Positions 1 to 20,000 of a stretch of 20,000 nucleotides of DNA are shown here, in pieces. The notes below the pieces were generated by a model, which did no database searches, was not told where the DNA came from, and saw only the letters and a list, made by a program, of their open reading frames with translations. The stretch is from the NCBI GenBank assembly GCA_029717555.1, contig JAMDHS010000014.1:298476-318475 (forward strand), given 5' to 3'. Both the position numbers and the translations under genes were made by a program. The DNA comes from Peribolospora baueri (taxonomy: Eukaryota). The stretch's first letter is position 1. Each line of letters begins with the position of its first letter.

Positions 1-1461
1 ATAAGGATGCGAGCGATGATGAAGAGTACACTAGCGCCGGCGAGCATGCCGCCCCCGTAGAACGTCATGGAATTATAGATGTTAGCCGGGTTAACGTTGG
101 GGTCCTGCGCCGAGTTGGTGATGAGCCGACCGCCAGCCGGCTCGCCGCCGAGGACGCCCATGGCCATCACGGTGCACGACATGCCGACGTAGACGCCGGT
201 GAGGCGGGGTTGCGGGACCAGTCGGACGATGCCGGGGGTGAGCATGGCGACAACACCGCCGGAGGTGAAGCCGTAGAGGCAGGTCCAGACGATGATGGCT
301 GCGTTGGTCTCACAGGCGCTCCAGCAAAAGGCGAGGACGGTGGAGGCGACGCAGGCGGCGATAACCGAATTGGCTGTCCCGACGCGGTCCGCAGCGAAAC
401 CGGTGAACCAGCGGCCAAAGAAGGAGGCGGCGTTGAGGATAGCGGAAAAGTAGAATGCGGTCTCGGTGGAGGCGCCGCGGAAGATGCCGTACGGGGTGAG
501 GAAGAAGAAGGGGAGGTATAGGCCGAAGAAGGAGATGAGACAGGCCAAAGTCCAGAAGAAGAAGCGCGGGTCCGAAAAGGCCATCTTGAACGGGGGAGGG
601 CCTTTGCTCATGTTGCGAGGGAAACGTGTCTTGGTGAGGTATGAGGCGAGGAGAAGAACGGCGAGTTGAATGAAGGCCACGGCGCGGACAGCCCAGCCGA
701 ACGAGACGTTGTTAAAGTTGAGCATCCTGTTGAGCATGACCGGCCAGACGACGCCGCCGACGGACGAACCGCTGAGGGCGAGCGCGCTGGCAAGGTTGCG
801 CTTGGTGCTGAACCACTGCGTAGGAGCGGTGATGGCCGGGTTGAAGATGAGGCCGAGGCCGATGGCGCAACAGATTCCCTGGGCGAGGAAGAATTGGTAG
901 TATTCCTTGCAAATAGACGTCATGAAGATGCCAAAGACAAAGACGACGGTGCCGATGAAGTTGGGAGGCTGTGCCGGCAAGACAGGAAAGAGAGACGGAC
1001 GCAAGGAGAAGAAACGCGTCAACGCCGGTGCCGCCGGAGGCGCAAGCGAGACGAGTCCTCACCCTGGCTCCATACTTGTCAAGAAGGATGCCGGCGGGGA
1101 GACCGACGCCAAATATGCCCCAGAGCTGTAGGCTGCCAATCCACGCGATGGCCGATTCGGAGCGGTCCGCGAGCTGATGGGCCTTGTAATACGCTTGGAA
1201 GACACCGAAGGAGTTGACGATGCCGAAGCCGCAGAACATGGTGAGGAAGCCGCCGAGGACGACGAGCCAGGCCTCTCTGCCGCCGTCGGGGAACGTCATC
1301 GGCGGCGGGGCCGGGGGGGCCTGCGGAGCCGGCGTGACCTTGTCGTGGCCGTTCCCCTGGAGCTCCAGGTCGTTGACCGTGTCGGCCTGGCCCGCACGGA
1401 CGCTGTCGTCCTTCAACATTTGCATTGTGGATCCGCTGCTGTACCGGTAGGCACCGTCCAT
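1..1461 (-). CDS. MFS transporter, fungal monocarboxylate porter (MCT/Mch-like) family; 2 exons visible (1461-1063, 968-<1), 3' end beyond window
   Basis: ATG at 1461. The N-terminus has the family motifs FPDGGREAWLVVLGGF, GIVNSFGVFQAYY, SESAIAWIGSLQ and GILLDKYGAR. A 94-bp intron at 1062-969 (GTGAGG...pyrimidine tract...CACAG) restores the frame. The frame then continues EYYQFFLAQG, QWFSTKRNLASALALSGSSVGGVVWP, FGWAVRA, FFGLYLPFFF and LNAASFFGRWFTGFAADRVG without a stop to position 1. Confidence 0.95.
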
Positions 1462-1583
1462 AGGCGACGGGCGAGGAAGAAGGGTTTTGGACGGAGGGAC
1501 GGAGTCCGTAACAGGCGGATGAACGACTTGAGGTGGTCAGCGAACAAAGGAGCGAGAGGCGAGTAGACTGAGGGTCCACACGG

Positions 1584-1610
1584 GGAGAGAGAGAGAGCGA
1601 GAGAGAGAAA
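1584..1610. repeat. (GA)n/(TC)n microsatellite in the probable 5' UTR/promoter of the MFS gene
   Basis: Sequence gagagagagagagcgagagagagaaa; CT-rich on the MFS coding strand, about 125-150 bp upstream of its ATG. Confidence 0.7.
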
Positions 1611-4440
1611 GCAAAAGAAGGGGAAGCACAACGGTGGTGACGGGAGGACACGACGACAAGGGGGGGAGGGAGCTCAGCCGAGCTGGGGATCGGGAGCGTT
1701 TTAGGCGACCACCGGACGGGATTTGTAGGTGCGCCGGCGGCACGTACTGTATGCTGTCCTCTGCCGCTGCTCCCGTCGCCGTCGCCGCTTGCCTCCCTGC
1801 GCCCCGTCACCTCGTCAAGGCCGGGCGCACAAGCAAGCTCCGGCGCGCTTAAAAGTTGCCGGCCGGAGCGATTTAGTTTCAACTCAACGCCGTGGCCCTG
1901 GTTGCGCCCAGGCGTATTCGTTGCATGGTCCATCACTAAGTTAGCTAGTGGCGGAGACGCGCTAGGCCAGAGGCTAGGCCAGGCTAACTTGGCCATTTCC
2001 CACGCCGGCCCCACCGCGCAGCTCCAGCCGATTACAGTACATGTGTCCTGTGCCTCTTGTGTCTAATTAAGCCAGCTGACTTACACACGTCCACTCCACC
2101 GTGCTACTGCCTGGACGGCTAGTCGGAAATGTACTGGACGGAGTCGGCGCCTTTCTGATTCGCGCACATGGCTCCGCCATCGTTACAAGTATAGCTCGAC
2201 GTCGTGGACCTGGAATATCTGCTATATAATTGCTTTCCCTTTCCAGGACTGGAATGTTATTGATGTTAAAGCCAGTCGACGAACGGTGACCATACAGACG
2301 AGATCACATGCATCCTCCTTCCATATTATATGCTGCAGTGGCCTCCCAATAGTCGATATGGCCTTCTTGGATAGCGTAGGCTATCAGTGGCGTCCTATGT
2401 CAACAGCCACGCAAGAAAAATCAGCAACGATTGGAGAATGGTGGAGATCCGCTATGACGGCTTGTACAAGGGTGACGGATCTTGAAAAGACAGAACAAGT
2501 CAAACAATACACATCTCGATGTATAAACTGCATTTATCTTTGCTCTGGCCAAGCATTTTTTTTGGCACGGTCAGGTTGAGATCCACATCCTGTTGCATGC
2601 ATGCTGCTTTTCAAGTGAAATACGGACATCTACATGACGAGAGAGCTGCCTGAATGCACGAGAATCGGCTAGGCTGACGTTACGCTAGCGTTCGACGCTA
2701 CTGTTACGTAGTACGTAGGCCTACGCAATTTGAACTTGATGGCGCAAGCCACTGGATCGGGCCGTAAAATAGAGGAGGCTGACCTGTGCTGACTACCCAA
2801 CGTAATCACTTTCTGGCGCCAGAGGCGACATTTTTTTGTCTTGCAACCGGTCTCATTCCAGAGAAAAGTAGAGACTGATTCTGAGCCAGACAGGAGCCAA
2901 CCGGACGGCGGAAGATGTTCTTAAAGCTTGAGGTGGGCGACAAGGCGAAATCGCTGGGAATGTGAGAGGGACGAAGAGTGGAGAGAGGAAGATAGGAAGG
3001 AAAGAGACGAGGGGAGAAGAGAGAGATGGAGAAAAGACGATGGTTCCATGTCGGCGGGGCACATACATGCATGCATGCATGCAGCGGCGAAGGTCGACGG
3101 TGACGGAGACAGGAACGAGCTAGAAAAGGGAGGAAGAGCCTCGTGATGCGGGCGCGGCGTCGGAACGTTGAAGCCGTCCCAGTCGGTGTGCAAAGTCTCC
3201 ACCCGTTCCCGGCGTCCACGCCCAAGACCGCCAACGATCGGGCGCCAACGCGATCCGCAATAGTCGTCCCGTTTCATCGCACCGGGGATGGCGGTGGCAC
3301 TCCGCCGACATCCCAAGTCGAGCGAGCGGACCGGACGCCGAGGGTCGGATGTTGGCACCCTCCTCGACGCGGGACCAGCCGATGCCCCCTACGTAAGTAA
3401 CGTCGTCCAGAGAGCCATTGTCGGTCTGTGATCGCGAGGCCACGCTCGGCGGCGCACACACATCCACTCTCGTCCCGTTTGCGGGAGCGGCGTTATTGAT
3501 CCGTCCTATGCCCCGACCCATTACACCCATTAGTGTGCGAGCTGACAGCCGTATAGCCGTCGCGGAGGGGACGACGCCACCTCGACCCACCACCGGTATA
3601 TGTACACACATGATAAATGCCTCACCAGTGGCCTCGCAAGGCGGAGCGCAAGCCGGCCGCCGCAGCAAGCCAAACGCCGCCCCCCCCCTCTTGGTCCTCT
3701 TGGTCAATTCCCATGGTAGGGGACGCCGGCAGAACTGTTGCAATGGCTGCTGTTCGAGCATGCTTCATGAAGCATCTTCATACTCTTTCATTCCCGTCTA
3801 AAAACGACCCTGCCATCCTCACCTCGAAGATGTGGCCCGAGGACGAGAGATGAGCAGGAAAGCGAGCACGTGCTCGGGCAAGATTGTCTTGATTCCCACG
3901 AACACCACTCTATGCGCTAGTATGATACGGGTTTGTGTGGGACGTCCTTCACCGCTCGCTCTTGGTCGCCACCATGTAACGGCCACGGCGAAAGTAGCAG
4001 AGGGCCACAAGGCGCTATGCCGATGCTGCCGGCAACTTTAGTTCCGGCCCGCCGTCCGGCGTCGCTGGCCAGTCCGTATGACCGAGCGCGGCTCCAGCAC
4101 CCGAGCGGAGCGGCTAACACGCTAGGACCTCCTCCGAGCCCATCGACACAGGCTTCCAGAGCAAGAGGCCGCTGTCATGTAGGTCACGGCGGCGGAGGAC
4201 GACGAGGACCGGACTCCTCCCGCCCCTGCCCGGCGCTCCGTCTCGTTTTCGTTAAAAGTCGGCCGACCGGGCGGCCCCTTCCCGCGCGAGGGCCCCCGTC
4301 GACTCCTTCCATTCTTTGAACCCGCCCTGTTCGACAACTTGCTTCTGTGGTTCGCCGTTCGCCAGCGCCGCTCTGTCCTCGACGCCGGCAGGCCCGACTA
4401 CCCTCCACTCTCGTCCCGTCGCGTTTTGAAACCAGTCGCC

Positions 4441-5977
4441 ATGTCGTCAGGAGGCGTCATCGATCTCGGACAGGGGTATCACATCCCAGCCGACCCCGAC
4501 ACGTTGAAATATGAGGTCGAGGTGTTCCGGCACACGCTCATCGCCATCTATGCCTTGCTCGCATGGGAGCACATTGTCACCGCCCACGAAGAGATCTACC
4601 GGTGGAAGCAGCTCTTCAGGGGCGAGTTCGTCCCCATCAACATTTTCTTGCTCGTCGGGAGATACTGCGTAGAAGGCACGGCCATCACATCGGCCATCCT
4701 GTTCTTCGGTCAGCCGACCAGCTGTCAGGGGGTCTACACGAGCATCTACGTGCTGTACGCCATCGCGTGGGTGGGTGCCGCACCGCCGTGGAGCAACGAC
4801 GGAAAGTGGAGGAGAATTTCTTTCTCCTCCTCGGGGGAAAGAAGCGCGGTCCATGAAAGCGGTGTCCGGGCGCTTTGGCTGACGTCTTTCTTTTGTCTCC
4901 TCCCGTTTCCTTCCTTGGCCGTTCCCGTTTCAGACGGCGCTGGCCTGCATTTTCACCCTCCGTATCAAAGCCATTTGTCGCGACGACCGTCGTTACTGGT
5001 GGACCATGGCTATTCTGACCTTCCTGGGCTCCGGTCTCTGGATCGCCTCGATCCCTGGCTTCAAAGCCGAGAATTTGCCGGCGGAGATGCGGTTTCGGTA
5101 CTACCCCATCTGCATGCCTGTGCCCTCCCCTCAGTGGCGCGCGATGGGTTGGGCCGCGGGGTCGATCTACGACATCATCCTCGTTTTGATCACCGTCTAT
5201 CACGTCGTCTTCGAGATGCCCGGCCACTTCAACCGAAGCCTCAAGCGCTTCCTCTTCGACACATCCATCATGTACTTTGCCATCTCCCTCTCCTGCAACG
5301 TTGTCTGCCTCTTCGTTGAACTCTGCAATAAGGACATCATCTTCCAGGCTCTTCCAGTTCCCATCGCCCTCGCCTTCAACATGATCGTCGGCGCACGCAT
5401 CGTCTTCCATTCTGAGCTCTGGAGCGAGGGCAAGAACGCGTTGCTCGTCATCGACCCTCGCCGGCGGGCCGGTCGCCACCTGCCCCCGCGTTCCTTCATG
5501 GGGCTCGGTGGCAGCGCCATGTACAATCACGACTCCCCGTCGGGCACCTACGACGATCAAGGCCACCGAGTCGACGACGAACCGCCTTTCGCCAACCTCG
5601 CCTGGGTGAGGAAGAACACCTTCACCTTTGGTAAGGAGGGTGCCGCGAAGCGAGACGCGTACGGGGCGCCCATGCGCGGCAAGCACGCTCACGGCGACAA
5701 CAAGTCGGCGCGCTCACGTCCGTCTTGCAACGACCCCGACGTGCCGCTCGCTCGCCTGCAGCCGGCCTACGTCACCCCCTCCACGGCCTCAGAAAGAGCC
5801 GCCTCAATCGGCTCGACCTATTCTCCCGAAGACGAGTCCCTCCCAAGCCGCCCCGCCGGCGACCAGAAGCTCATGGAGATCCTCACCGAAGTCCGTGTCG
5901 CCCGCGAGACCCGCGATAATAGTGCGGAGGGCCGATCCGACCGGCGAGCGGACAGGACGTTCCTCCCAGACATGTAA
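4441..5977 (+). CDS. Multi-pass membrane protein with DUF6533-like N-terminus; 2 exons (4441-4770, 4934-5977), 457 aa
   Basis: ATG at 4441 in gccATG context. ALLAWEHIVTAHEEIYRW...FLLVGRY resembles the basidiomycete DUF6533 pattern (hhhYDhhhThxxEhxxhW...FhhxRY). A 163-bp phase-0 intron (GTGGGT, branch GCTGAC near 4878, TTTCAG) joins ORF 4339 to ORF 5006 in frame (...YAIAW|TALACIFTLRIKAIC...). About 6-7 hydrophobic segments are followed by a hydrophilic C-terminal tail. Confidence 0.85.
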
Positions 5978-6525
5978 CCCCCCTAGTCCTTGCTCTCTAC
6001 CCACGCTAGCAACTCCCCTGGTCCCTCGGTTCTTTCCCGTTCGGGACGCCGCTTCGCGATTTCAAGCTTTTCACAGCACGTGAGACCGCCCCGAGATCAT
6101 TGTCTATCCTCCCTTCGCCGCGTATAAACCCCTTTCCATATATCACTGTCGTTTCCTTGGTGTCTTCCTTTCCCTCCGTCTCTCTACGATCGTCGACGTT
6201 CCGCATAAGCGACTAGGCCAGGGACGTGCATCCTCGTCATGCCTTGAAATGATAGCCACCATAACTTTTTTTTGCTTTGTTTTGGCCGAGGTAGAATCGT
6301 TTGTCGTGTGTTTCGTCCTTCCGTGCCAGACATTGAGCATTCGGGCAGACACAGTTAGTCCGGCGGACCGAGACGGCGCATGGCCGACACGTTATTTACG
6401 GTATATGCCGTGGGAGCCGTCTAGACCAAGTTCTTTCATGCCATATTGACGCCCTTTGCGCCGCAGACGCCGTGCGAGTTACCGCGCGGCCGCCGCAGGT
6501 CGCACGTCGAATCGGGTCCCGGCCA

Positions 6526-7299
6526 GGGTTAGGGCTGGACCGTGACGACAGACGGTAGCGAAACTGCAACTAGCCGTGGGCCAGCACGAGGCGGAAAACC
6601 GTTCTCCTCGCGGGACGAATTCGTCCTGGGCCGTCGATTCGGCTGCACTGCCAAACAGTCGACGTCCTGCGTAGGTGAGGAGCGAGCGCAGGAGAGTCGA
6701 TACACTGCACCCACCACGGGCTCCTCAACGATCTGAACTTCTTGTTGGTAGGGCGGCCGACCGCCTATAACGTACTGTACCTTCATGGCACGCTCCCGTG
6801 CATTCCAGCGCGGCACGGCACACGCCATTTTCGGGTGCGGTGCCGAGTTAACGGTACAGACAAGAGTTGCTCGCCGCCGCAGCCAACACGGATATCGGCT
6901 CGTTTCGAATTTGTCCGTCCCAGAACGGACAGCTTCCGGCTGAGCTTCCAGAAGAGGCGAGTGGTACGCGATAGGTCTAGCGCCCGCGCACGTACCGTCC
7001 ATACCGCACTGGGCATCGCCCCAACTAGCGCTTCTGATGAAGAAAGGAGCGGTGCATGCACGTCGGCGCTCCTTTGGTGCCATGCACTAACACGTCTAGC
7101 GCAGTTGCTTCCGTGCACGGGCCACTCGGGCCAGGCTCCACTTCTCACGTCCCATATGTATCCTTTGTTCCTAGCTTCCCTTTGTCGTAATGTGTTCCTT
7201 TGTCCCATTGCACGACGCTGGACGTTGTTTGCCTCTATGTGGACATGTTGTGGGGTAGAACACATATATAAGATGGGCCGTCGACGGTAACCCTAACCC
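6526..7299. mobile_element. Possible non-autonomous TIR element (MITE-like) with telomere-like termini
   Basis: Left 6526-6547 is GGGTTAGGGCTGGACCGTGACG; the reverse complement of 7279-7299 is GGGTTAGGGTTACCGTCGACG. No coding capacity was recognised inside and no target-site duplication was found. Confidence 0.3.
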
Positions 7300-7498
7300 A
7301 GAATCATAAGGATCTCAAGCTGTTTATTCTACAGCTTCTGAATCCTCCGCCCACGGACGGACTCGCGCAACGCGACGCGATAGGTCTGGCGCCCGCGCAC
7401 GTCACTGTACAGAACATACTGCACTGCACTCTGCGCACTTCGCATCGCCCCACAACTAGCGTTTCTGAATCGTCCGCCCACCGACGGACTCGCGCAAC
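6966..7498 (+). repeat. Degenerate direct-repeat family (~127-bp period plus one displaced partial copy)
   Basis: ACGCGATAGGTCT[A/G]GCGCCCGCGCACGT occurs at 6966-6993 and 7375-7402, each followed by CATAC[C/T]GCACTG and GCATCGCCCC(AC)AACTAGCG[C/T]TTCTGA. TTCTGAATC[C/G]TCCGCCCAC[G/C]GACGGACTCGCGCAAC occurs at 7336-7371 and 7463-7498. Confidence 0.85.
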
Positions 7499-7629
7499 CC
7501 GCTCCGCGTCCCATTCCAAGAAGAGGGCTACGACCAAGTCGAGGGTGAAGGGGTTAACATTGGAATGATAAAAGCAGCCTTGCTGCCGGGGGATCGAAAC
7601 CTTTCCGCTGGTCGCTGTCCACCTCTACA

Positions 7630-7757
7630 GCAAGTTGCGGGTTGTGTTTTCCAGCGAGATCCGCTTGCAGACGGATAATGTTTGGGTCCGGTTAATGCAA
7701 GTTGCGGGTTGTGTTTGCCAGCTTGCAGACGGACAATCTTTGGGTCCGGTTAATGCA
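7630..7757 (+). repeat. Two-copy tandem duplication (67 bp and 58 bp) upstream of the PKS
   Basis: GCAAGTTGCGGGTTGTGTTT[T/G]CCAG...CTTGCAGACGGA[T/C]AAT[G/C]TTTGGGTCCGGTTAAT occurs at 7630-7696 and 7697-7754; the second copy lacks 9 bp. Confidence 0.9.
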
Positions 7758-8025
7758 CGCAAGGGCGAGAACTTTCCATTGACGAGACCGTGCTTGGGGA
7801 GAGGAGCGGAGAGGCGGAAAGAGGCAGAGGCAGCTTGGCTCGGTGCGGAGGGTAAACACTGCGCTGTCCGTTTTCCGGGCGGCTGCAAGTAACGAACTGT
7901 GGAAAGCTGGCGTCGCTGAATACTAGTTCGCGAATGTACGTCTCCGGTGACGGAAGCTACCTCTGGTCCGTTTCCCTAAGGCTCCCTGCGTTTGCTCCAC
8001 CAGCGCGGGATCCCCTAACGTCGCC

Positions 8026-8032
8026 TATAAAA
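8026..8032 (+). promoter_or_regulatory. TATA box candidate for the PKS gene
   Basis: TATAAAA lies in an otherwise GC-rich stretch, about 160 bp upstream of the ATG at 8189. Confidence 0.55.
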
Positions 8033-8188
8033 TATGCGGGCTAGCCGCGGTCGTTTCCGTCGGTCGTCGAGACTCCTCCACCCCTGATCGCACGTCCACG
8101 CCGTCCGGCCCCAACTTGTTCTCTCCCAACGACGCTGCCTCTGCTGAATACTGTTTCGAAACGTCAAACGTCCCTAGACGGGTCGGCC

Positions 8189-11100
8189 ATGGCGTCTGCA
8201 CGCACGACCCTTCACGCACCCCCTTACACTCAGCGAGGCCAGTCGGGATCTCGTCCCGACCCGGGCCCTAGCAAGCCCAACACAAGCGACCGATCACGGA
8301 GATCGAAGTTCGCTCGTTTTTCCATCTCTTCCTTTTCTTCCAGCCGCCTGCGCGACCGCGACCGCGACGTCCCGTCTCAGACTCCCTCTACCGACTGGTT
8401 GAACGTCGAAGCCCATCCATCAGCGCCACCATCGCCGTCTCGCTCGGCCGCGCCATTGGCAATTGTGAGAGCATGGTGATCTTGCCGTAATGGCCGCCCC
8501 GGCCCGGGAGACTTACACATCTCTTTCTTCATGCTCTTCGCCTGCCAGGTCGGCATCGCCTGCGAACTTCCTTCTCCCGCCGACCGGCCCGATAACCTCT
8601 CCTACCGTGACTTTTGGCGGTTTCTTCGCTCCGGAGGAGAGGCCTACAGCAAAGTGCCGGATGACCGGTTCGCAGCGGACAGGTGTGTGCCGGCCTCATT
8701 CAGACGTCTACTCGAGCTCGTTGCGCGGCTGCGGCGTGCGTCTGACCGTTGTCCTGCGTTTCTTTTGCAATGATGGACCGCCGGTTCGCTCTACCCTGAC
8801 GACAGGTGGAAAGGAAAAGGCCCGGGGCGGGTCGTGACAGACACCGGCGCCTTTGTCAAGCACCCTTCTCTGTTCGACCCACTGGAGTTCGGCATATCCA
8901 ACAAGGACGCCCCCTCTTTCCCAGTCAGCGCCCGCAAGCTGCTCGAGCTCTCTTTCCAAGCGCTCACCGACGCCGGCATCCCTTACCGCGGCAGGCGCGT
9001 GGGCTGCTATGTGTCCGGCGTGGCCCACGACCTCTTGTCCATGTCCGATGTGGACGAATACGCCGTCCCCGCCTCATTCGCTGGCGTGCCCGCCATGATC
9101 TCCAACAAGATCTCCTACCATCTCGACTTGCGTGGCCCCAGCTTGGCCCTGGACACCGCTTGCAGCTCAAGCCTCACCGCCTTCCACCTGGCCGCTCAGG
9201 CGCTGCGGCAAGGCGAGTGCGAAGCCGCCGTCGTGGGCGGCTACCAGTTCAACGCTAGGTGCGTCCCAACACCGGGCCCCGACTCTGGTGACGTCCGCAT
9301 CGACTTCCATGCGCTGACATCGTCCTTTCCTTTCTGCAGACTGTCAGATTGGATTTTCTACTCCCAGTCCGGCTTGCTGAGCCCCGACGGCAAATGCAAG
9401 CCGTTCGACGCTGACGCGAACGGGTGAGTCCGTCCCCCTGCGTCCATTGTATGCAATCCAGTCTCAGGTCTCACCGCTTCAGGGCCCTCCGCGTAGGTTT
9501 TCCCGAGGCGAAGGGGGATGTGTGGTGGTCGTCAAACCTCTTCTCGACGCCTTGAGGGACGACGACCGCATCTACGCCACGGTGAGGACGGTTCACAGAG
9601 TACAGCGGACCCAGCCGTAGCTGTCGAGCATGGGCCCCCCGTTGACACGCCTGTCCGCTCCGCTTTCATAGATCTTGGGAACTGCCATCAACAACGCCGG
9701 CTTGCAGGCTCCCGCTGGCGTGCCTGCCGCCGATGCCCAAGAAGAAGTGGCGAGACGCGCGTACCACGAAGCGGGCCGCTCGCCGCACGAGGTCGACTTT
9801 GTTGAATTGCACGCGACAGGTGCGAGCGTTGGCATCTTCTATGCTACATCTCCTGCTTTATCGCGTCGAGAAGCTGATTTGACCTGTTGGGTCGGATGGC
9901 AGGCACATCCGTCGGCGACCCCGTCGAGGCGAACATGGCGGGACGCTTCTTCTCCAAGGGCCGAGGGGACCGCCGGCTGTTGCTCGGCAGCGTCAAGGGC
10001 AACGTCGGACATCTGGAGATCACCGCCTTCCTCGTCTCCCTTGCCAAGGTCTGCCTGATGTTCGAACACGGCACCGTTCCGCCCAACGTCAACGTGCGAC
10101 GTCCGAATAACCGCATTCGCTGGGACGACTATCACATGGCCGTACCTATGGCCCCGCTCGCCCTCCCTTCTCACAGCCAGCCTGAACGCCCTCTGGTGTC
10201 CATCTGCAGCTATGGCATCGGCGGGTCCAACGGTCACGTCGTTCTGGAAGGTCCTCCCTCGCGATCGCAGGCCTCCCCCTCATCCCGCATCTTCGAGCGC
10301 TCGCCTACAACATGCCTTGTCGTTGCCGGCGGCCTGACGTCTCGGTCTTCCGCAGAAGTCTCCAAGGCGGCGGCCGTGACGTTGCAAAGCGCCCCGCCGT
10401 TCCTGCGGTCCGCGTTTTGCATGCGGATGGCGAGGTCGTCGCGTCAAATGATCTGGAGGTCTTACGCCGTGCGAGACTCCGACGACGGGACGGCGCTTGA
10501 CTTCGGCCCCCCGCGGCAAGTCCCCAAGGAGAGGCGCCCGCTGGTGTTCTTCTTCTCCGGGCAAGGGCCGCAGCACATCGGCATGGGGCGCGAGCTCTAC
10601 GCGCGATACGACGTCTTCCGCAGGACGATAGAAGAGCTGGACAGCTACGTGGAGCAATCCATGGGAAAGTCTCTCATCCGCGATTACGGTCTGTTCACGA
10701 CGAATGGGACCCAGAGCGACGTGCTGCCTGTAAAGGGCACCTGGCCCAACGCGGTCACCCTGCCCTCCCTCACCGTGGTTCAGATTGCCTTATTCGACCT
10801 TCTTTGCGCTCTCAGCCTCCGTCCCGATGTTGTCTTTGGTCACTCGGCCGGCGAGACGGCTCTGGCCTATGCATCCGGAGCGTGCTCGAAGCGCACGGCC
10901 GTTGAGATCGCGTGCGCGCGCGCCAAGGCCCTCGTTCCCGTTGAGAGAGCCGGAGGGACCATGGCCGCGTTATCGTGTTCCGTTAGAGCCGCCCAAAACC
11001 TCATCGACGAGGTCGTGGGCAGCACGATGGACGGCCGTCGGCCGTCCGTCGTCGTGGCGGCGCATAACGGCCCGGAGGCAGCTGCCATCGCCGGTTTGCG

Positions 11101-14100
11101 GGAGCCGCTTTCTGCCGTCTGCCGCTTGGCTCAGGCCCGTGGCATTTCCGCCAAAGTCCTGCCTACCGACGTCGCCTTCCATTCCCCGCTCGTCGAACTC
11201 GCCAAGAATGAATACGTTCGGCTCATGGAGGAAGTGTTCCGGTCCGCAACGGAGCTGCGCGCTCCAACGGTGCGGACGTACTCGACTTTTACCAGCACGG
11301 TCCGTACGGCATCTTACGACGCTCAGTACTTCTGGGACAACGCTCGGTCACCCGTCCTGTTCGATAAGACGGTCAGGCACATCTTGGCGGACCTCCGTTC
11401 GGAGGAGCCTCCCATATTCGTCGAGCTGGCTCCCCATCCCGCCCTCTCTCCGTACGTCGTCGCGCTCGGCGTCGCGGCCGAGGACGTCATTTGTCCGATG
11501 CGGCGGCCTCGATTGTCCGCACAGAAACCGGAGACGGCCGACGCGGTCGCCCTGCTCGGGGCCGTCGGCCGTTTCTTCGCCTCCGGTTTCGACGACGTCG
11601 CCCTCGCCGCTTGCAGCCTCGACGAGAAGGAGAGCCAGTCGTGGACCGTCGTACCCGCTCCGGAGTATCCCTTCCAGCGGAAGCACGTGCCCTTCCACAT
11701 GGACCACCCTTCCTTCTCCCGCCGGCTCGCTCCCGCTCGTCGGCCGCTGCAAGGAGAGCTCCTGCGGATCAACACTGAGACGCATCCGATCCTGGCGGAG
11801 CACGTCATCAAAGGCGCGCCGATCATGCCCGCTGCCGGGTTCCTTGAGACGGCTTTCCAAACAGCGAACGCCACCGTCCTCTGGGACGTCGAGTTCCAAG
11901 AGGCTCTGACTCTCTCGAGCGACCCGCCCGCCACCGTCCAGGTGCGCGTCCAAGACGAGCACTTTACGATCCGCACGTCGTCCGCAGGATCGAGTGCGGC
12001 CGGGTCCGAGAACAGCTTCGACAGAACGCACTGCCAAGGCTTCGCATCGCGGCCTTCCAAGGCCATCCCAGCTCCTGCGTTCTTGGACGTGGCCGCCGTG
12101 CGCTCCCGCTGTGCCGACGTCGTGCCTGGCAGGTCTGTCTACGAGGTCGGGTTCAAGGGAATCGCCTCTTTCGGGCCGCACTTTCGAAGGATTGTCGAAT
12201 GCCACCAGGGCGGGGACGAACTGCTACTTCGCGTCAAGGGAGGCTTCGCCGATGAGGACGCGGCCGCCGGCTTCTTCTTGCACCCCAGCGTGCTCGACGC
12301 CTGCTTCCAGTCGGTCCTCATCTTTGTCATGCAGCACGGTGAAATGTTCCCCGACTGGGACCAGCGCGATTTTTACCTGCCTTCCAGAGCTGGCCGCGTC
12401 GTCCTTCACGAGCACAACCTCAACCGAAGCTCGGGCTCGCGCGAACCGACGCTGTGGGTGCATGCCAGAATGCGTGGCTGGCGCCCGGAAGCCATTGAGG
12501 CCGACGTGGATTTGTACGGGCCGGATGGCGAGCCCCTCTGCTCGATCTCCCGGTGCGAGGCCGCCAGACACTCGGGCTCCAATGTTGTCTCCGTTGGCAC
12601 TCGCTACGAGCCTATTTGGCAGCCTTACTGCGTGCCGAAATGTCCAGGCCCGGCCGGCCTCGGGACGGTCCCGGCAGCCTTGGACTCGACGGTCCTCTCC
12701 GCGTTGGATACCTTTTCGCGTCCCGAGGTCGTCCTCGTCGGCGGGAAAGGTCCTAAGGACTTGTCGGAGCTGGAGCAGCTCCTATCCGAGGCACAGCCCT
12801 ACGCTTGGGAGCTCATCAAGTCTGTGGCAGCCCGTCAGAAGACGTTGACGTCGAACCCTTCGGGCGAGTTCCTGGAACTTTTCATCGCCTATCATGAGCA
12901 GATCTGCCGAGAATCGTCCGTCCTTTCCGATGTCCGATCGGCCTTCGTCGCACAGGTGCATCATCTCATCCGCTCAGGCAAGCGTGCCATACGCGTTCTC
13001 GAACTCGGAACCGGCGCCATCGCGGGAGGCCTGACGCAGATGCTTTGTTCCTCCATCTCCGAGTCGGGCCTGTTGGACATGGCAGTCGTCGAGTACTTTG
13101 TTTGCGATTCGTCTCTGGGTCGCGCGGAGACGGCCGCGGCCCGGGCTTCCTCCTACCCATATCTGAGGTTGACAGTGCTCACCGACGCGTCCCAATGTCC
13201 GGCTGCTTTCGACATCTTGACTGGATTCCATTGCCTCGGCGGTCGCTCACATCGTGGAGAAACTCTCGCGGATGTCGACAGATACCTCGTCCCTGGCGGC
13301 TTCCTTTGCACAGTCGAGACCGACGGACGAGCGTGGCGTGAACGACGGCCCGGAACGACGTGGTACGACTATGCGATGAGTCGTGTTTGCCCAGGCCATC
13401 TTGAGGTTCATGGCGGACAGCTCCCCTTGGATGCCGGGGGCTGGTCGCAAGCGTTGCGTGCTGCCGGCATGGTGGATGTCGCCGTGACCGCCGCGGCCCC
13501 GGCCGGGGATGCGAACGAACTCTTTGTCGGTTTGGTCGCTCAGCTCGGCCATCCGTCGGGCAACGTCTTAGATTTGCGACCGTCCAGCTCGCCGAAATCG
13601 CCCGCTCGCTCCATCTATTTCACCTTCAAGGACGGGAACGAGATGCAGCTCAAGGAGAAGCTCGCCCCGTTGGCCTCTGTCCATCAAGATTTGTCGCTCT
13701 GGATCTTGGCCGACGACGGTCAAGACGGATGGGTCGCGCGCGGCCTGTCGCGCTGCCTGCTTCACGAGCACCCCGGGTGGCAGGTCCGTCTCGTCCTCTT
13801 CGACCCATCCTGGGATAGACAAAAGCGGTCTCAGGCAGTGGACGTGCTTCAGGGAGTTCGGAATTTGGACTTTGAGCTTCGCGTCGACGCCAAGGGGATT
13901 CTTCAAGTCTCGCGCCTCGCACCTTCCCCTCCGCCTTCCGGCCAGCTGCCCTTCGAGCTCGAACCCCATCGTCTGCCCTCCGTCTACAATCCGATTGAGG
14001 TGCGGGTGGCAGCTTGGTCTTCGGACGGTCTCGGATTTTCTGGCACTGTCGTTTCTGAGCAGGGGGGTTTCACCGTCGGAGAGCGCGTCGTCGGACTTGC

Positions 14101-16744
14101 ACACGATGTCGCTCCGCACGCGAGCCTCGTCGTCGATGCCGGTAGTGTGACCCCTTTGCCAGCAGACCTGAGTCCACAAGGGGCCGCCGCGTTGGCGAGC
14201 GGCTTATTCGTGGGCGTGCAAGGGTTGCCCTGCCACGACGACTTGTCCCGGCTGAAGACAGCACTGGTTCATGACCTCGACGACCCGACCGCCTACGTCG
14301 TTGCCAGTTTCTACGCAGCGCTCGGGGTGCGTGTCTTCGGAACCGTGAAAGGCAGCGCTGGCGGCGCCCGGACCTTTGCCACCGGCATTCCGGTGACCGA
14401 CTCGGAAGACTCGGTTGTTTGGACCAGTACGGTCAGATCCTGGGCGCCGGATGGATTCGACATCGTGGTTCTAGTGGACAGGACGGACAGAAGCGTGTTG
14501 ATGCAGTCGGCCTTGGTCTGCTCGGCTGGCGGGACCATCGTCGTGGCGTCCAAGTCCGCTCCTTTTAGCCTCCCGCCCTCGTCGTCTGTGGTAGAAAACG
14601 CGCGACTAATCAACTTGCCCCAGATCATCCGGCAGGACCCGTGTGCGGTACGTCACAACATCCAAAGGGCATGGAGCCTCCTGGAAGGAAGCGGAGCCCG
14701 GATGGACGTGCCCGCCGGATTGGATGTGGGGTCGCCCGTCGACCACCCGGTGTCCCCAGAGATGCGCTTCCGGTCGAAGGCCTACTATGTCCTCATAGGA
14801 GGCGTCGGTGGTCTCGGAGTCCACCTGGCCGTCTGGTTATACAACCACGGCGCACGCCACATCGTTTTGACTTCTCGGAGCGGAGAAGCGAGCATTCGCA
14901 GGCAAGAGCATGTGTACGCACGTCGCGTGCTCGACTTCCTTCGCCGTCAGCCCGGCATTGATCTTCGCATCGAGGCTGTCGACGCGGCAGACACGCAAGC
15001 GACTATGGCCCTCTTGTCGAGTCTGCGTCTGCCCGCCGCCGGCTGTTTCATCATGCCGATGATCCTGGCGGACAAGATGTTCCTCTTCCAGGACAGTTCC
15101 AGCTTCAGGGCGCCCTTCGACGCAAAAACCAACGCGTTGCGGGCGCTGGCGGCCGCGATTGACGTGAGCTCGCTCGACTTTCTCGTCACATTTTCTTCCA
15201 TCGCCGCGGTGGTGGGCAATCCAGGCCAGAGCAACTATGCTGCGGCGTCCACGGGACTCGAAGGGATGACCGGCGCGTACCGCAACGCCTTCTGCATTGC
15301 GGTTCCCGGCATCACGGACGCCGGCGGACTAGCCAGGCTGGCGAGCCAAAGCAGTGGCAATTCGCAGCTCGAGGCTTGGGTGGCGGCAGGAATGACGACT
15401 ACCCAGCTCTGTCGTTGTCTCGAGGATGGTCTTCGCAAGCTGGCCGACGGGCCCTTCCGTTCGTATGTCCCGGGCGACCTCGACTGGGGCCTCGTCTGCG
15501 GAACGGTGGCAGCGAGGCTCGACTCGGCACGAGCCCTCGTCAAAACATCTTTCTCATCAGTCTCTGATCGCGACACGTCGACAGGCGAAAGGCTACGCAG
15601 AGCGGTCGCCTCTGTGCTCATGGTATCGGAAGACGAGCTCGACCCCAACACGTCGTTCCGCGCCTACGGTTTCGACTCGTTCATGGCCATCCAGCTCGCT
15701 ACGTCGATCAGGAAGATGTTCGCCGTTGTCGTCTCGCAGATGCAGCTGCTGGGAGACATGACTTTGGAGCGGCTCGAGCAACTAGTTCTGAGCGAGACGA
15801 CGGAAGCGCGCGGTCCTGAGAGCGGCGTCACCAACGAAACCGCCACAACCAAGGGCGACACGTTGTCGGACCAGACGCTGCTCAAGTTCGACGACCGGCC
15901 AGCGTCGGCCGGACCTCCTTTGATTCTGGTTCACGGATCCGGCGGAGCCATCTTCAATTTTGACCGCCTGTCGCGAAACCTCGCCGTTCCACTTTGGGCG
16001 ATCTGCCATACGGCAGACGCTCCCATTTCCGGGTCGATCGACGACCTGGCCCGGTATTACGTCGAGGCGATCCTGTCCGCTCGTCCGCATGGCCCATATC
16101 GGCTCGGATCGTTTTCTGCAACCAGCACACTTGTCCTCGTTATGGTTCGGCTGCTCGAGGAACGCGATGAAGTGGTCGAACACGTCGTGCTAATCGACCA
16201 CGCGCCCACTTTGTTGGCTTCACCCGCATACGAGGACATGTGGCACTTGCCGGACGGCATCGAGGGCGAAGCCGGCCGAGAGGCTATGTTCCGCAGCGTC
16301 CTGTCCCTCCTCGAGATCGATGGAACGGAGGAGCGAGAAGGGCTCAAAGACCTGCGTGAAATACTCCAGCTCTCCCTCTCGACGACGACCAACGGCAAAG
16401 GCCATGCATCGGCTCTCGTCCGCCACATAGCTATGAACTTTGAGCACGTCAAGCGTTGCGCCCGCGAAGGGTCTGTTGGCGCTTCAATGCCCGGGGTCGT
16501 TGATTTCGGACCGTTTTTCACATGGATGCGCAGGATCAAGGCGCCCGTGACCCTCTTTGTCGCCAAGTCCGGTCTCTTGTCCACCAACGACCACGGCGAC
16601 TGGAACGACATGGGTCTCCGACGCGCTTTACCGAATTCGACCGTCATTGAGGTGCCGGCAGGCCATTTCGAAAGCCTCCGCTGCCCCGAGCTCGCCGAAC
16701 ATTTGCACCAGCTGTTCGCCGTGAGCGCGGGTGGATCGGCATGA
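8189..16744 (+). CDS. Iterative type I reducing polyketide synthase KS-AT-DH-(pseudo)cMT-(pseudo)ER-KR-ACP-TE, ~2,673 aa; exons 8189-8464, 8549-8682, 8806-9258, 9340-9423, 9497-9581, 9672-9819, 9903-16744
   Basis: Six GT-AG introns (84, 123, 81, 73, 90, 83 bp) give a continuous 8,022-nt frame. KS: PLAI|VGIACELPS, DTACSSS, G|FSRGEG, ELHAT|GT, GNVGHLE. AT: FSGQGPQ, GHSAG (~10838), AFHS (~11174). DH: HVIKGAPIMP (~11801), HPSVLDACFQ (~12290). cMT-like: VLELGTG (~12995), LVPGGFL. KR: IGGVGGLG (~14795), GNPGQSNYAAA (~15215-15247). ACP: GFDSFMA (~15668). TE: LVHGSGG, GPYRLGSFSA, LIDH, AGHF. The start codon at 8189 (gccATGg) is the least certain part. Confidence 0.95.
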
Positions 16745-17269
16745 TCCCGTCGCGATTTTCTCTCCCGCTTTTCTCTCAGCCCTTCGCCCTTCCCTCGCCC
16801 TGGCAAGCGGCGCTTTTTTGTCCTCGGTTATGATATTTGTAGAACTTCGCTCAGCAGATTCCACATTCTCGTCTTTGCTTGCTATTTTGGAAACGTTCTG
16901 CGGCTTACGATTGGGTAGGAACTAGTTACTTTTATATCCTTAAAGAAGACGGCAGCGCATCGGCCGCTGGCTAACAATGTTCGACCCGGGTGAGGATGGC
17001 GAGCCTCGTACTATATTCCCCTGGAACGGGGGGTCGATTCCAAAGCCAGACGCGCGTCGCGGATGCTCGGGCCGAGCGCCCGAGCCTGGAGCGGTGGGGA
17101 CGATTCCAGGCCGCTCGGTTGCCGTAGTGGCCAGGGCAAGGTGCCCTCTGCCCAGATGTGCTCTTGTTCATGTGCCTGCCGCTGATGTAGCTCCCCGGCT
17201 CCTGCCATCTCGTTCCTGTCGGCTTGTTCCTTGCTTCAGCTTCTATTATCAAATCCTCCTATCACCATC

Positions 17270-17540
17270 TGTCAGGGATCACTCCCTACTCAGGTCGTCG
17301 GGTGGCAAGGCAGGAGGAACAGAAGGGGTTGTACCAGGAGTCGACACCGAACCGAGACGGGAGGAGGAAAGAGAGCAAGACAAGACTCAAGGACCTGAGC
17401 GGTGACAAAAGTATTCTAAGCTTGGGGGGAAAGGAGAGGTGGAGGCCCTGTCGGGCCCTTATATATACAAGGCAGACGTGTCATCTCGGATCGGAGGCGG
17501 CGTTCATGACAGTCCCGGATCGGAGACGGCGTTCGTGACA
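17270..17540 (-). mobile_element. 3' LTR (271 bp) of a Ty3/gypsy retrotransposon
   Basis: On the minus strand it starts TGTCACG (17540) and ends CCTGACA (17270), giving TGTCA...TGACA inverted termini. It has an internal TATATATAAG (~17458-17467) and lies just after the chromodomain stop codon and a short G-run. Confidence 0.85.
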
Positions 17541-17552
17541 GTACCCCCGGGG
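17541..17552 (-). other. Degenerate polypurine tract preceding the 3' LTR
   Basis: The minus strand reads ...TAG CCCCGGGGGTAC TGTCACG. The GGGGG plus 3 nt before TG sits where a PPT is expected but is short. Confidence 0.5.
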
Positions 17553-18195
17553 CTAAGCGTGAGCTCCGCGAGCGCGGTTGAGACGTCGTTGGCCTGGCTT
17601 CTGGGGGTAAGTCGTGTGAAAGTCAACCACAAGGCTGTCGTCGTCGTCAAAGTCATGCGCAGCCACCCAGGAGCGCTCCTCAGGGCCGTATCCGACCCAG
17701 TCTACGAGGTATTTCAACTTGCGGCGGGAGAAACGCGAATCGAGTATCTTGGCAACCTCATACTCGTCTTGCCCCGCCTCGGTGATGACGGGAGGTGGGG
17801 GTGAGGCAGAGGGGCGAGAGGACAGAGTGGGGGACGAACGGTTCCAGAAGCGAGACATGGAAGACGGGATGGACCTTCATGGAGGTAGGAAGGTTGAGCT
17901 TAAAGGCCGAACTGGAGATCTTCCTGTCAATGGTGAAGGGGCCCAGGCGCTTGGCGTCCAGCTTGCTGCTGGGTCTTGCCGTCGAGATATGGCGCCGCAT
18001 GAGCCACATCTTGTCCCCAGGCTCGAAAGGAGGCGCTTCAGGCCTGAGCCGGTTCGCATACTTGGCGTGCCTGACGAGAGCCGTTCGGATACTGTCCGCT
18101 GCCTGCCGATGCGTCTCCTGGAGCCGTCTCGAGTCGCTAAGGGTCACCTCTAGTCTCTGGTGATATCCATAATTCGCGAAGAAGGGAGTCATGCC
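17553..18195 (-). pseudogene. Chromovirus (Ty3/gypsy) pol remnant: integrase C-terminus (GPY/F module) plus chromodomain, frameshifted and 5'-truncated
   Basis: GMTPFFANYGYH...FEPGDKMWL...KLDAKRLGPFTI...[23 protein letters not shown] is in one frame. [33 protein letters not shown] is in another, with the frameshift near 17830. No RT, RNase H or integrase core was seen upstream. Confidence 0.92.
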
Positions 18196-18679
18196 GATGA
18201 ATAGCATAGACATGGTGGAGGGCTGAGAAAAGGGAGGTGGCGGCGTCGGTTCGATCAGAAGGTGGCGGCCGCTGACGGGAAGACGACCAGGCCGGTGGTG
18301 GTGGGGGCGTCACTGAAGAGGGAGGGCTACTCCCAGGTCGCCACTGGTGATGGTAGTAGAAGTACTCCCTGAAAACAGGCGCTTGCGCGTCGCCGTCGCC
18401 GTCGCCGTCGTCGTCGCCACGAAGCTTCCACACGCGACCGGACCGGACTCGACGTCGCCCGAGCGGTGAGCGCCGACCGCAGCAAGGCGGGGCAACGGGA
18501 AAGCCACGTGGAAAGCAGCAACTCGTCCGTCACGCCCTTATATTCACAAACTTTATTTGTCCACTCCGCAGCAGAGCCTCATTCGACACACGTACCATTC
18601 TTCCTCTCCACAACCTTTCTTCTTCTTATCATTGCCTGACCTCAACCAGCACAAGCTCCAACACCAACGCCAACAAACC

Positions 18680-19171
18680 ATGAGCCGGTCCCACTCCTCC
18701 GACACGTCTTCGCAGTTGGGCGCGCTCGCCGCTCTTCGCGCACACGTAGATCTCACCGCACTGGTGCAGGTCGCGTCTGCACTCCGCGGCGACGACATCT
18801 TGTGTCGTCTCGCAAACGAAGAGCCGGGTTACGGGGCTTTCAACGCGGTCTGGTGTCTCGAGTTCGCCGACGGCGTCAGGTGGGCGGCGAAGATACCGCT
18901 CGTCTACGATGAAGAATGGATGCAGAAGCGAGGAATGAACGGAGAACCGGCCCACGCGTCAGTAAGGGTGGATTTAGAGCGCATACGAACAAGGCGGGAG
19001 TCATCACGCCGATACCAGAGGGGAGGGGTGACAACCACTCGCGACCGTCTGCGATCCTCACGGTTGGATGAGCTCTTGGAGGTGATCGACATCTGTCTGA
19101 TGACCACACGAGTCATTCGCCTGATAGCAGTCGAGGCGGCCGATGAGATGACTCACTTCGATCCACTTTGA
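18680..19171 (+). pseudogene. N-terminal fragment of a fungal APH/choline-kinase-like phosphotransferase
   Basis: ATG at 18680 (acaaaccATG). VDLTALVQVASALRG...C...GYGAFNAVWCLEFADGVRWAAKIP matches the N-lobe pattern GxFN...hxFxDGxxWhh[RK]hP. Similarity stops near 18925, and no EVATM-like, HxD or DW motifs follow in any frame I could find. Confidence 0.6.
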
Positions 19172-19959
19172 TACCAACATTTGGTATACTCAAAAATCGA
19201 ACGATGACCACATTAATCGATGGCACTCAACAGGCTCATGGCATCAAACCCCCGAAAAAAAGGAGACGTTTGAAGGAAGGGACGTGGCACGTTCGTACAC
19301 GTTGTGGCCGTCTACTGGCCCTCGGGAGAAATTCGGCACCGTCAGCACCTTCTCCCTGAAATAAGAGACTCATGCAGTTGTTCAAGGCGCCCAGGACTGC
19401 TACGACGAACATGGCCTTGGAAAACCCGGAAGATTGGACGTCCCCAAGGTACTTGGCGAGCAGCTTCTAAAACCTATTGGCGGTAGTTTCCCTACGGACT
19501 GTCGCCAGTTGCTCCCTACCTTTTCTAGTTTTGGTGTGCCTGATCGAAGGCTGTACGGCCAAAGACGAGCTATGCATTGTTGCGACCACCAGTTTGCCAC
19601 TGAAACAGAAAGTGGAACCGAGGATATGATCGCCGTCGACGACGGACTTGGCAGCAGTGTCCACAATCGTAAACTTTTCGGAGCTCGAGGCAAGTTTGCC
19701 GGCTGTCGTAATTCGCCTAAGGTGAACGAGGGGCCCGCTATTCTGTCGTTGACAGACCGGGCCAAATGTATCAAAAATGATCATCAGCACAGAGGTACTG
19801 CACGTACTGGCAAGAGTAAGCAATAGAGCCGGTCCAGGCTCAAATTCAAGGCAATTGGATAACTCTGCGCCACGACAACGTACTCAGAGCCGAAAGCGTC
19901 TGGTCAAGTTGCAAAACCTTGATGGAGCCAGCGCCTATGTTTATGCCTAGGGCCATTTA

Positions 19960-19963
<4 letters not shown>

Positions 19964-19994
<31 letters not shown>

Positions 19995-20000
19995 TTTTTC
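19964..20000 (-). repeat. Poly(T)29 tract, possibly the poly(A) tail of a retroelement or retrocopy lying beyond the window
   Basis: T run at 19964-19992 followed by ATTTTTTC; the minus strand reads GAAAAAATAAAAA...(A)n GTTTTAAATGG. Confidence 0.6.

Follow-up and report, generated by a model that had tools for sequence, protein, structure and literature searches.

We analysed a 20,000-nt stretch of the Peribolospora baueri genome (contig JAMDHS010000014.1, here called the window) that carries a polyketide synthase (PKS) gene at 8189–16744 on the + strand. With a probability of roughly 0.55, its predicted product is a single-module iterative highly reducing PKS (HR-PKS) that would release an unmethylated, unbranched conjugated polyenoic acid and that is closest in domain state to StPKS1, the strobilurin synthase of Strobilurus tenacellus. 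Pfam, alignments and profiles give the domain order ketosynthase (KS), acyltransferase (AT), dehydratase (DH), degenerate C-methyltransferase (psiC-MT), structural pseudo-ketoreductase (psiKR), inactive enoylreductase (ER0), ketoreductase (KR), acyl carrier protein (ACP) and thioesterase (TE). Because KS, AT, KR, DH, ACP and TE look active while the enoylreductase (ER) and the methyltransferase (MT) look dead, an unbranched and fully conjugated chain is to be expected. With KR and DH intact, the ER dead and no trans-acting ER in the window, the most economical product would be a conjugated polyene that the TE sets free. A first-pass annotation of the window had described a polyene synthase of the PPS1/LpaA kind. 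The basidiomycete-type HR-PKS, the domain order of LpaA and the release of a polyene by the TE can be kept from that description, while the evidence leans against membership in the PPS1/LpaA group.

In the proposed cycle, the AT would load malonyl units onto the ACP and the KS would extend the chain. After each extension, KR and DH would convert the beta-keto group to a double bond. With neither saturation (ER0) nor methylation (psiC-MT), a linear, unbranched conjugated polyenoyl-ACP would be formed, and the Ser-Asp-His TE would hydrolyse it to the free acid.

Gene model and coding frame

The gene model was built by hand from reading the DNA and consists of the following parts.

8189–16744, + strand: PKS gene, seven exons, coding sequence (CDS) of 8022 nt, 2673 aa
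8189–8464, 8549–8682, 8806–9258, 9340–9423, 9497–9581, 9672–9819 and 9903–16744 (including the stop), + strand: exons of the hand-built model
8465–8548, 8683–8805, 9259–9339, 9424–9496, 9582–9671 and 9820–9902, + strand: six introns, GT..AG, 73–123 nt

All six introns passed a check of their splice sites: they start with GTG, have G at position 5 and end with AG. The CDS length is divisible by 3, and the only stop is the terminal one, ending at 16744. In the alignment the exon junctions rebuild KS motifs that are uninterrupted in relatives. The start, the end and the motif coordinates given by the first-pass annotation agree exactly with this model. The longest open frame runs from 9878 to 16744 on the + strand (2288 codons), with five shorter coding pieces upstream. 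At the GC content of the window (~0.62) about 2.9% of random codons would be stops, and by our own arithmetic the chance of such a frame is ~e^-68. That the final exon stays open over 2288 codons at 62% GC is taken as evidence that the gene is maintained.

All six introns lie within the first 1.7 kb, and the last exon of 6.84 kb is free of introns. For the strobilurin PKS gene, 28 introns are reported (PMC6158276). The intron distribution suggests an intron-poor lineage or a 3'-biased loss of introns. The ATG at 8189 is the sole in-frame ATG of exon 1. It is followed at 8192–8416 by an N-terminal extension of 75 residues, which is Ser/Arg/Pro-rich, of low complexity and without counterpart in 22 aligned relatives.

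Domains and catalytic residues

Relatives are here the best 120 matches of a homolog search against 5.8 billion protein clusters. The domains of the predicted protein, all on the + strand, are as follows.

8549–10267, + strand: KS, split by introns 2–6; Pfam ketoacyl-synt (6.4e-39), Ketoacyl-synt_C and KAsynt_C_assoc
10544–11452, + strand: AT; Pfam Acyl_transf_1 (3.9e-45); GHSAGE (10838), VAFHS (11171)
11765–12664, + strand: DH; Pfam PKS_DH_N (2e-10) and PS-DH (3.3e-20); HxxxGxxxxP (11801), LDACFQ (12293)
12875–13582, + strand: putative degenerate C-methyltransferase (psiC-MT), between DH and psiKR; blastp match to the MT region of 53 of the 120 relatives
13595–13981, + strand: structural (pseudo) KR subdomain (psiKR); blastp match in 115 of the 120 relatives; confident fold in the AlphaFold model
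13982–14767, + strand: shortened enoylreductase remnant (ER0), predicted to be inactive, 260 aa; profiles, AlphaFold/Foldseek
14768–15517, + strand: catalytic subdomain of the KR; Pfam KR (2.6e-35); GGVGGLG (14792), Lys (15116), Ser/Tyr/Asn (15194–15250)
15575–15802, + strand: ACP; Pfam PP-binding (4.4e-14); GFDSFMA (15668)
15905–16741, + strand: TE; Pfam Thioesterase (8e-12); blastp match in 73 of the 120 relatives

Alignment with 22 relatives shows complete sets of catalytic residues in KS, AT, DH, KR, ACP and TE. Pfam and these alignments uphold the intact motifs of the first five and the C-terminal TE listed by the first-pass annotation; its domain list was right in what it named but passed over the C-methyltransferase-like domain at 12875–13582. 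The catalytic residues of the KS are Cys in DTACSSS (9152), His in ELHATG (9804) and His in GNVGHLE (9998). The KS also carries FPVSARKLLE at 8918–8947 and GNVGHLEITAFL at 9998–10033. In the DH, the motif HVIKGAPIMP starts at 11801 and the catalytic Asp is present as well. The KR has its LIGGVGGLG at 14792; searched against PDB sequences, the KR region gives LovB as top match (1.1e-16), next to the KR domains of fatty acid synthases (FAS) at ~1e-16. The Ser/Asp/His triad of the TE is complete, with LGSFSATS (16103), LIDHAP (16184) and AGHFES (16652). Its elbow reads SFSAT instead of GxSxG, and the variant S/A-F/Y-S-A/G-S/T is common to the TE-bearing relatives.

The canonical malonyl motif of AT domains is HAFH. 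At 11171–11185 the AT reads VAFHS, and the combination A-F-H is found in 0 of 22 aligned relatives, which have VPVHS, VAVHS or VPGHS.

The enoylreductase remnant

The first-pass annotation had seen a shortened ER that lacks the NADPH site, with LVHDLDDPTAY at about 14264, and both profiles and the fold model confirm it. LVHDLDDPTAY occupies exactly 14264–14296, in place of the NADPH-binding LIHxxxGGVG. The Pfam scan of the ER0 stretch gave no match even at E<=10, blastp of the stretch matched 0 of the 120 relatives, and a database search with the stretch alone (residues 1366–1625) gave no match at E<=0.01. The homology to relatives is visible with profiles only. An insert of 196–274 aa lies between psiKR and KR in 114 relatives, which are all but one of those with blast matches to both psiKR and KR. 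The profile of these 114 inserts matches the window ER0 at E=1.4e-18. The shortened ER0 is thus a trait of the sampled relatives at large and does not single out this gene.

A profile of the window ER0 together with 16 relatives matches several solved structures, including the MAS-like PKS 5bp4 (6e-7), Qor 4rvs (2.4e-5), the FAS ER 2cf2_D (4e-5) and the CurK ER (8e-5). A search of P0002, the top match among the relatives, against PDB sequences added nothing further. In the profile alignment, the 'vLvtdddtevasa' of the ER0 family sits on 'ILIHSATGGVGQAA', with 'LVtdddtev' opposite the cofactor motif 'LIHSATGGVG'. A GGVG-type motif is present in the ER0 insert of 0 of the 22 aligned relatives. 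The AlphaFold model of the ER0 alone (pLDDT 79.0) was matched by Foldseek to MAS, CurK, JamJ, the FAS ER domains and LovC, with E from 2.5e-13 to 2e-10 and TMq of 0.56–0.68. The model of psiKR-ER0-KR (pLDDT 81.8) aligns over 750–790 columns with the ER-containing regions of FAS, MAS, modular PKSs and LovB, and over ~500 columns with KRs that lack an ER. Judged from profiles and models, 13982–14767 is a genuine but dead ER, which keeps the MDR/ER fold and has lost the NADPH motif.

Only the window protein has two insertions in the ER0, one at 14393–14428 (12 aa) and one at 14564–14611 (16 aa). Consensus signals of an in-frame intron are absent at both. At the 16-aa insertion a hidden intron was considered and rejected, as there is no GTRNG-type donor like those of the six real introns.

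The degenerate C-methyltransferase

The Pfam scores of the psiC-MT stay under the cut-off, with 18.9 bits against 30 for Methyltransf_12 and 17.6 against 27 for Methyltransf_23. Motif I for binding S-adenosylmethionine (SAM) reads LELGTGAIAGG (12992) and has a 2-aa insertion inside its Gly-rich loop, which occurs in the window protein alone among 98 aligned MT segments (1/98). Gly replaces the catalytic His (GFHCLGG, 13223), and the Glu is retained (CTVETDG, 13307). An alignment to the C-MT of the citrinin synthase PksCT (5mpt, E=0.01) pairs the Gly of the window protein with His2067 and its Glu with Glu2093, the two residues that form the catalytic dyad of that domain (PMC11579551). Of the 98 aligned MT segments, 83 have H and 9 have G in the His column. 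With the catalytic His lost, the SAM loop disturbed and the Pfam scores below cut-off, we infer that the C-MT of the window protein is inactive.

Relationship to other basidiomycete synthases

Among the best 120 matches, the best are all HR-PKSs of Agaricomycetes or Dacrymycetes with 33–35% overall identity. The top match, P0002 from Botryobasidium, has 33% identity over 99% of the query, and identity in KS-AT peaks near 50%. No protein named PPS1 or LpaA occurs among the best 120 matches of this search, nor among the best 120 matches of a search with the Russulales protein P0099. The KS position with the signature xR[KR]LxE/D is the one where MDPQQR is the canonical motif. The signature is present in the window protein and in 21 of 21 aligned relatives. 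GHLEITAFL is exact in 11 of 22 aligned sequences and has near variants in the rest, so that GH[LT]E[IV..]xAF[LI] or a near variant is found in 22 of 22. The two KS motifs on which the first-pass annotation relied, FPVSARKLLE and GHLEITAFL, are thus really there, but they lose their value as marks of PPS1/LpaA since they run across all aligned relatives. The window protein has both features of the core basidiomycete HR-PKS family with a shortened ER0, namely the KS signatures and a homologous insert of ~200–270 aa without an NADPH motif. It is, as far as its sequence tells, an ordinary but very divergent member of this big family with its shortened dead ER.

A proxy for the LpaA/PPS1 lineage was chosen with the translated lpaA primers from the supplements of PMC7473843 and PMC9893682. 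Only six of these primers gave collinear matches, and most were too short to place. P0277 and P0252, both deep-branching, fungal-sized HR-PKSs, are representatives from an exhaustive search whose 150 sequences are mostly giant bacterial modular PKSs and about one third fungal-sized. P0277 matches 32 of 49 primer-derived residues, a count biased upwards by the choice of the primer positions on P0277 itself; 13 other family members match 10–20 and the window protein 15. One primer match in P0277 is 9/10 and includes a one-residue insertion found in no other protein, and the match to the N-terminal primer occurs in P0277 alone among 221 proteins. On account of this insertion and of the N-terminal primer, P0277 seems a reasonable proxy for this lineage. 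Its gene model looks faulty, since KS_C is cut short and the C-terminus is scrambled. The position number of the SAM-binding Asp (1415) was also considered as a way to recognise the LpaA lineage, and it was dropped as uninformative because P0002 shares it.

The ER0 of P0277 is longer and more ER-like ('VLLHAG', 'GVDIVFN', 'GKFVQIGG') and matches the short-ER0 profile at E=0.052. The spacers between MT and KR measure ~490 aa in P0277 and ~440 aa in P0252. In the LpaA/PPS1 lineage the ER0 may thus have stayed more complete than in the core basidiomycete clade. In LpaA and PPS1 the proton-donor Lys of the ER is changed to Gly (G1982 and G1990, respectively; PMC7473843), and the 'GKFVQIGG' of P0277 would fit this change. 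By eye, 'FVQIGG' of P0277 stands against 'IVVASK' of the window protein, which would keep the Lys, an insecure equivalence since MAFFT misaligned P0277 there.

In a FastTree phylogeny of KS-AT (205 sequences, rooted on bacterial modules), the branching order is P0277, P0252, the window protein and then 197 core proteins, with supports of 99, 99, 86 and 92. For a short run of IQ-TREE, 165 of the 205 sequences were dropped and the remaining 40 were hand-chosen to span the clades. In this tree a clade with an SH-aLRT of 92 unites the window protein with P0029 (Gloeophyllum) and four TE-less PKSs of the Phallomycetidae type, and P0277 and P0252 lie outside that clade at supports of 99 and 97. MT labels given to the tree sequences by BLAST proved too inclusive and were disregarded. 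Forcing the window protein and P0277 to be sisters costs 34.4 log-likelihood units, with p=0.040 in the approximately unbiased (AU) test; forcing a clade of the window protein, P0277 and P0252 gives p=0.053. Tentatively, the window protein forms a lineage of its own on a long branch, which joins the core basidiomycete clade at its base or close to it. Judged by the proxy, the evidence leans against its membership in the PPS1/LpaA lineage. The first-pass annotation had itself said that a KS grouping outside the PPS1/LpaA clade would speak against its proposal, and this is tentatively what is seen, with P0277 branching apart in both trees and the sister constraint at AU p=0.040. The name 'LpaB', which it had also used, has 0 occurrences in the LpaA paper.

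Comparison with characterised synthases

The characterised basidiomycete HR-PKSs named in the cited papers are PPS1, LpaA and StPKS1. StPKS1 (PMC6158276) is, like the window protein, a basidiomycete iterative HR-PKS, with the order KS-AT-DH-psiC-MeT-ER0-KR-ACP. Its internal C-MT and its ER are judged inactive, no trans-ER takes part, and the conjugated double bonds are kept in a triene product (PMC6158276), as proposed here for the window protein. The two differ at the C-terminus, where StPKS1 carries a partial hydrolase with just the Ser, a stretch of ~300 residues without an assigned function and an active C-MT, while the window protein has the full Ser/Asp/His TE and no second MT. The StPKS1-type protein P0013, linked to StPKS1 by architecture and organism name only, shares ~33% identity with the window protein over 65% of the query. 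Together with P0018, another protein of ~2800 aa with a second, C-terminal MT, it belongs, like the window protein, to the core clade of the IQ-TREE phylogeny.

LpaA of Laetiporus sulphureus has the same eight-domain order KS-AT-DH-MT-ER0-KR-ACP-TE as the window protein and a similar size (2729 vs 2673 aa; PMC7473843). LpaA and PPS1 of BY1 each have a dead ER and suffice as single enzymes for the formation of polyene acids (PMC7473843). In these enzymes the C-MT is active and essential and the products are methyl-branched (PMC9893682, PMC7473843), whereas the MT of the window protein looks dead. The C-MT mutant D1415A of LpaA makes no product (PMC9893682). The ascomycete HR-PKSs of the LovB/TENS type (LovB structure 7cpx) share the core KS-AT-DH-CMeT-psiKR-ER0-KR-ACP with the window protein. 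LovB differs in its active C-MT, in a condensation domain in the place of the TE and in its need for LovC, and no LovC-like gene is present in the window.

Alternative explanations

The proposal of the first-pass annotation, true membership in the PPS1/LpaA clade, here taken together with a methyl-branched polyene product whose double bonds are shifted, has in our judgement hardly any chance. The eight-domain order of LpaA, the similar size and the dead ER would agree with it, and the AU test does not reject a clade that unites the window protein with P0277 and P0252 (p=0.053). The KS marks on which it was built are family-wide, the 15 of 49 primer residues lie inside the 10–20 range of 13 unrelated members as compared with 32 in P0277, and branches with supports of 99 and 97–99 separate P0277 from the window protein, with AU p=0.040 against a sister relation. 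Furthermore, the window ER0 fits the insert profile of the core clade (1.4e-18) and the P0277 ER0 does not (E=0.052), the catalytic His is lost from an MT that is essential in LpaA (PMC9893682), and neither LpaA nor PPS1 is among the best 120 matches of either full-length search. Closer to StPKS1 would be an enzyme of the strobilurin type, in which a non-acetate starter such as an aryl-CoA is extended a few times to a short di- or triene and not to a long polyene pigment. The psiC-MT and ER0 shared with StPKS1 (PMC6158276) favour this possibility, as do P0013 and P0018, which lie in the core clade with the window protein and likewise have Gly at the His column ('HMLGF'). We consider it unlikely, given the full TE triad and the missing C-terminal C-MT as against the partial hydrolase of StPKS1 (PMC6158276), a tree in which the window protein does not group with P0013 and P0018, and the lack of a visible gene for phenylalanine ammonia-lyase or the benzoate pathway in the window.

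An ER encoded outside the window could complement the ER0 in trans, as LovC does for LovB, and this would saturate the product in part or completely. The combination of ER0 and trans-ER is usual in ascomycete HR-PKSs such as LovB and TENS (PMC6158276), the ER0 model has LovC among its Foldseek matches, and the window holds little flanking DNA. None of the 178 flanking open reading frames (ORFs) belongs to an MDR/ER family, and StPKS1, LpaA and PPS1, the three characterised basidiomycete ER0 enzymes, act without a trans-ER (PMC6158276, PMC7473843), which makes this complementation improbable here. A gene without any product, silent or on its way to being lost, is highly unlikely. Such a fate would go with the very long end branch, the degenerate MT, the unique low-complexity N-terminal extension of 75 aa, the retrotransposon remnant 0.8 kb downstream and the abolished production of LpaA after loss of its MT (PMC9893682). 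The 8-kb frame is intact with correct splice signals, and all catalytic residues in six domains are kept, unlike what is expected under neutral decay.

Several points also weigh against the unbranched polyenoic acid that we prefer. The ribose-binding Asp of the psiC-MT is retained along with the Glu, so that residual MT activity is conceivable. If the MT is dead, the enzyme could be non-productive, as LpaA needs its MT; because LpaA D1415A makes nothing, a dead MT would be tolerable only if the KS had adapted, as in StPKS1. KR and DH could skip cycles and give hydroxylated or pyrone products instead of a clean polyene. The end branch of the window protein is long (0.73–0.87 vs medians of 0.16–0.39), and its placement shifts between methods with modest support. 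The flanks in the window extend only ~8 kb upstream and 3 kb downstream, and a more distant trans-ER is possible.

Genomic neighbourhood

The flanks were scanned with Pfam as 178 stop-to-stop ORFs of at least 40 aa (97 + 81) in 1–8300 and 16700–20000. Pfam matches were obtained in four of them, and MDR/enoylreductase families in 0 of 178. A trans-acting ER nearby, which the first-pass annotation had named as evidence that would go against its polyene, is thus absent from the window. A phenylalanine ammonia-lyase or benzoate-pathway gene was likewise not seen in the flanking-ORF scan. The neighbouring features are as follows.

3–2062, − strand: major facilitator superfamily (MFS) transporter gene, running off the left end of the window; two ORF pieces (3–1536), Pfam MFS_1 9.9e-15 and 2.3e-6; the gene may extend to ~2062
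4440–5650 (ORF 4183–5316), + strand: gene of a multi-pass membrane protein, at least two exons; weak DUF6533 match below cut-off (E=0.0013)
17556–18309, − strand: remnant of a Ty3/gypsy-type retrotransposon; chromodomain (1.8e-9), Tf2-1-like integrase SH3 domain (2.3e-18)

The MFS transporter may belong with the PKS as its exporter; the two are linked by proximity alone, 6 kb apart on opposite strands. The retrotransposon remnant follows the PKS stop at a distance of 0.8 kb. As no reverse transcriptase, RNase H or integrase core is found in the ORFs up to 20000, it seems to be truncated or decayed. GC drops to 0.50 at 2001–3000 and 19001–20000, compared with ~0.62 elsewhere, and these stretches are probably intergenic or repeat-derived DNA.

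Significance

The architecture, the family and the logic of this synthase are already known; what is new is a very divergent individual member. Hundreds of uncharacterised relatives exist in genomes, and the window gene is one more orphan among them, unusually divergent with a best identity of 33–35%. It is a reasonable, not an exceptional, target for heterologous expression.

Unbranched polyene pigments have been known as a class since the 1940s. We found no gene assigned to corticrocin, calostomal or the boletocrocins in the literature covered, which excludes subscription journals. For pigments of this type, a paper of 2025 states that missing genomes prevented a search for the genes (PMC11727611). 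That the window enzyme represents the missing kind of synthase for such unbranched basidiomycete polyene (di)acids, of the corticrocin, calostomal and boletocrocin class, is a long shot. A dead C-MT and a dead ER together with a full TE are the domain state that such a product needs, and the isolated deep branch would fit. If the product is indeed an unmethylated polyene acid, this would be the first gene for that pigment class, and the enzyme would be a polyene synthase that functions even though it lacks the methylation on which LpaA depends.

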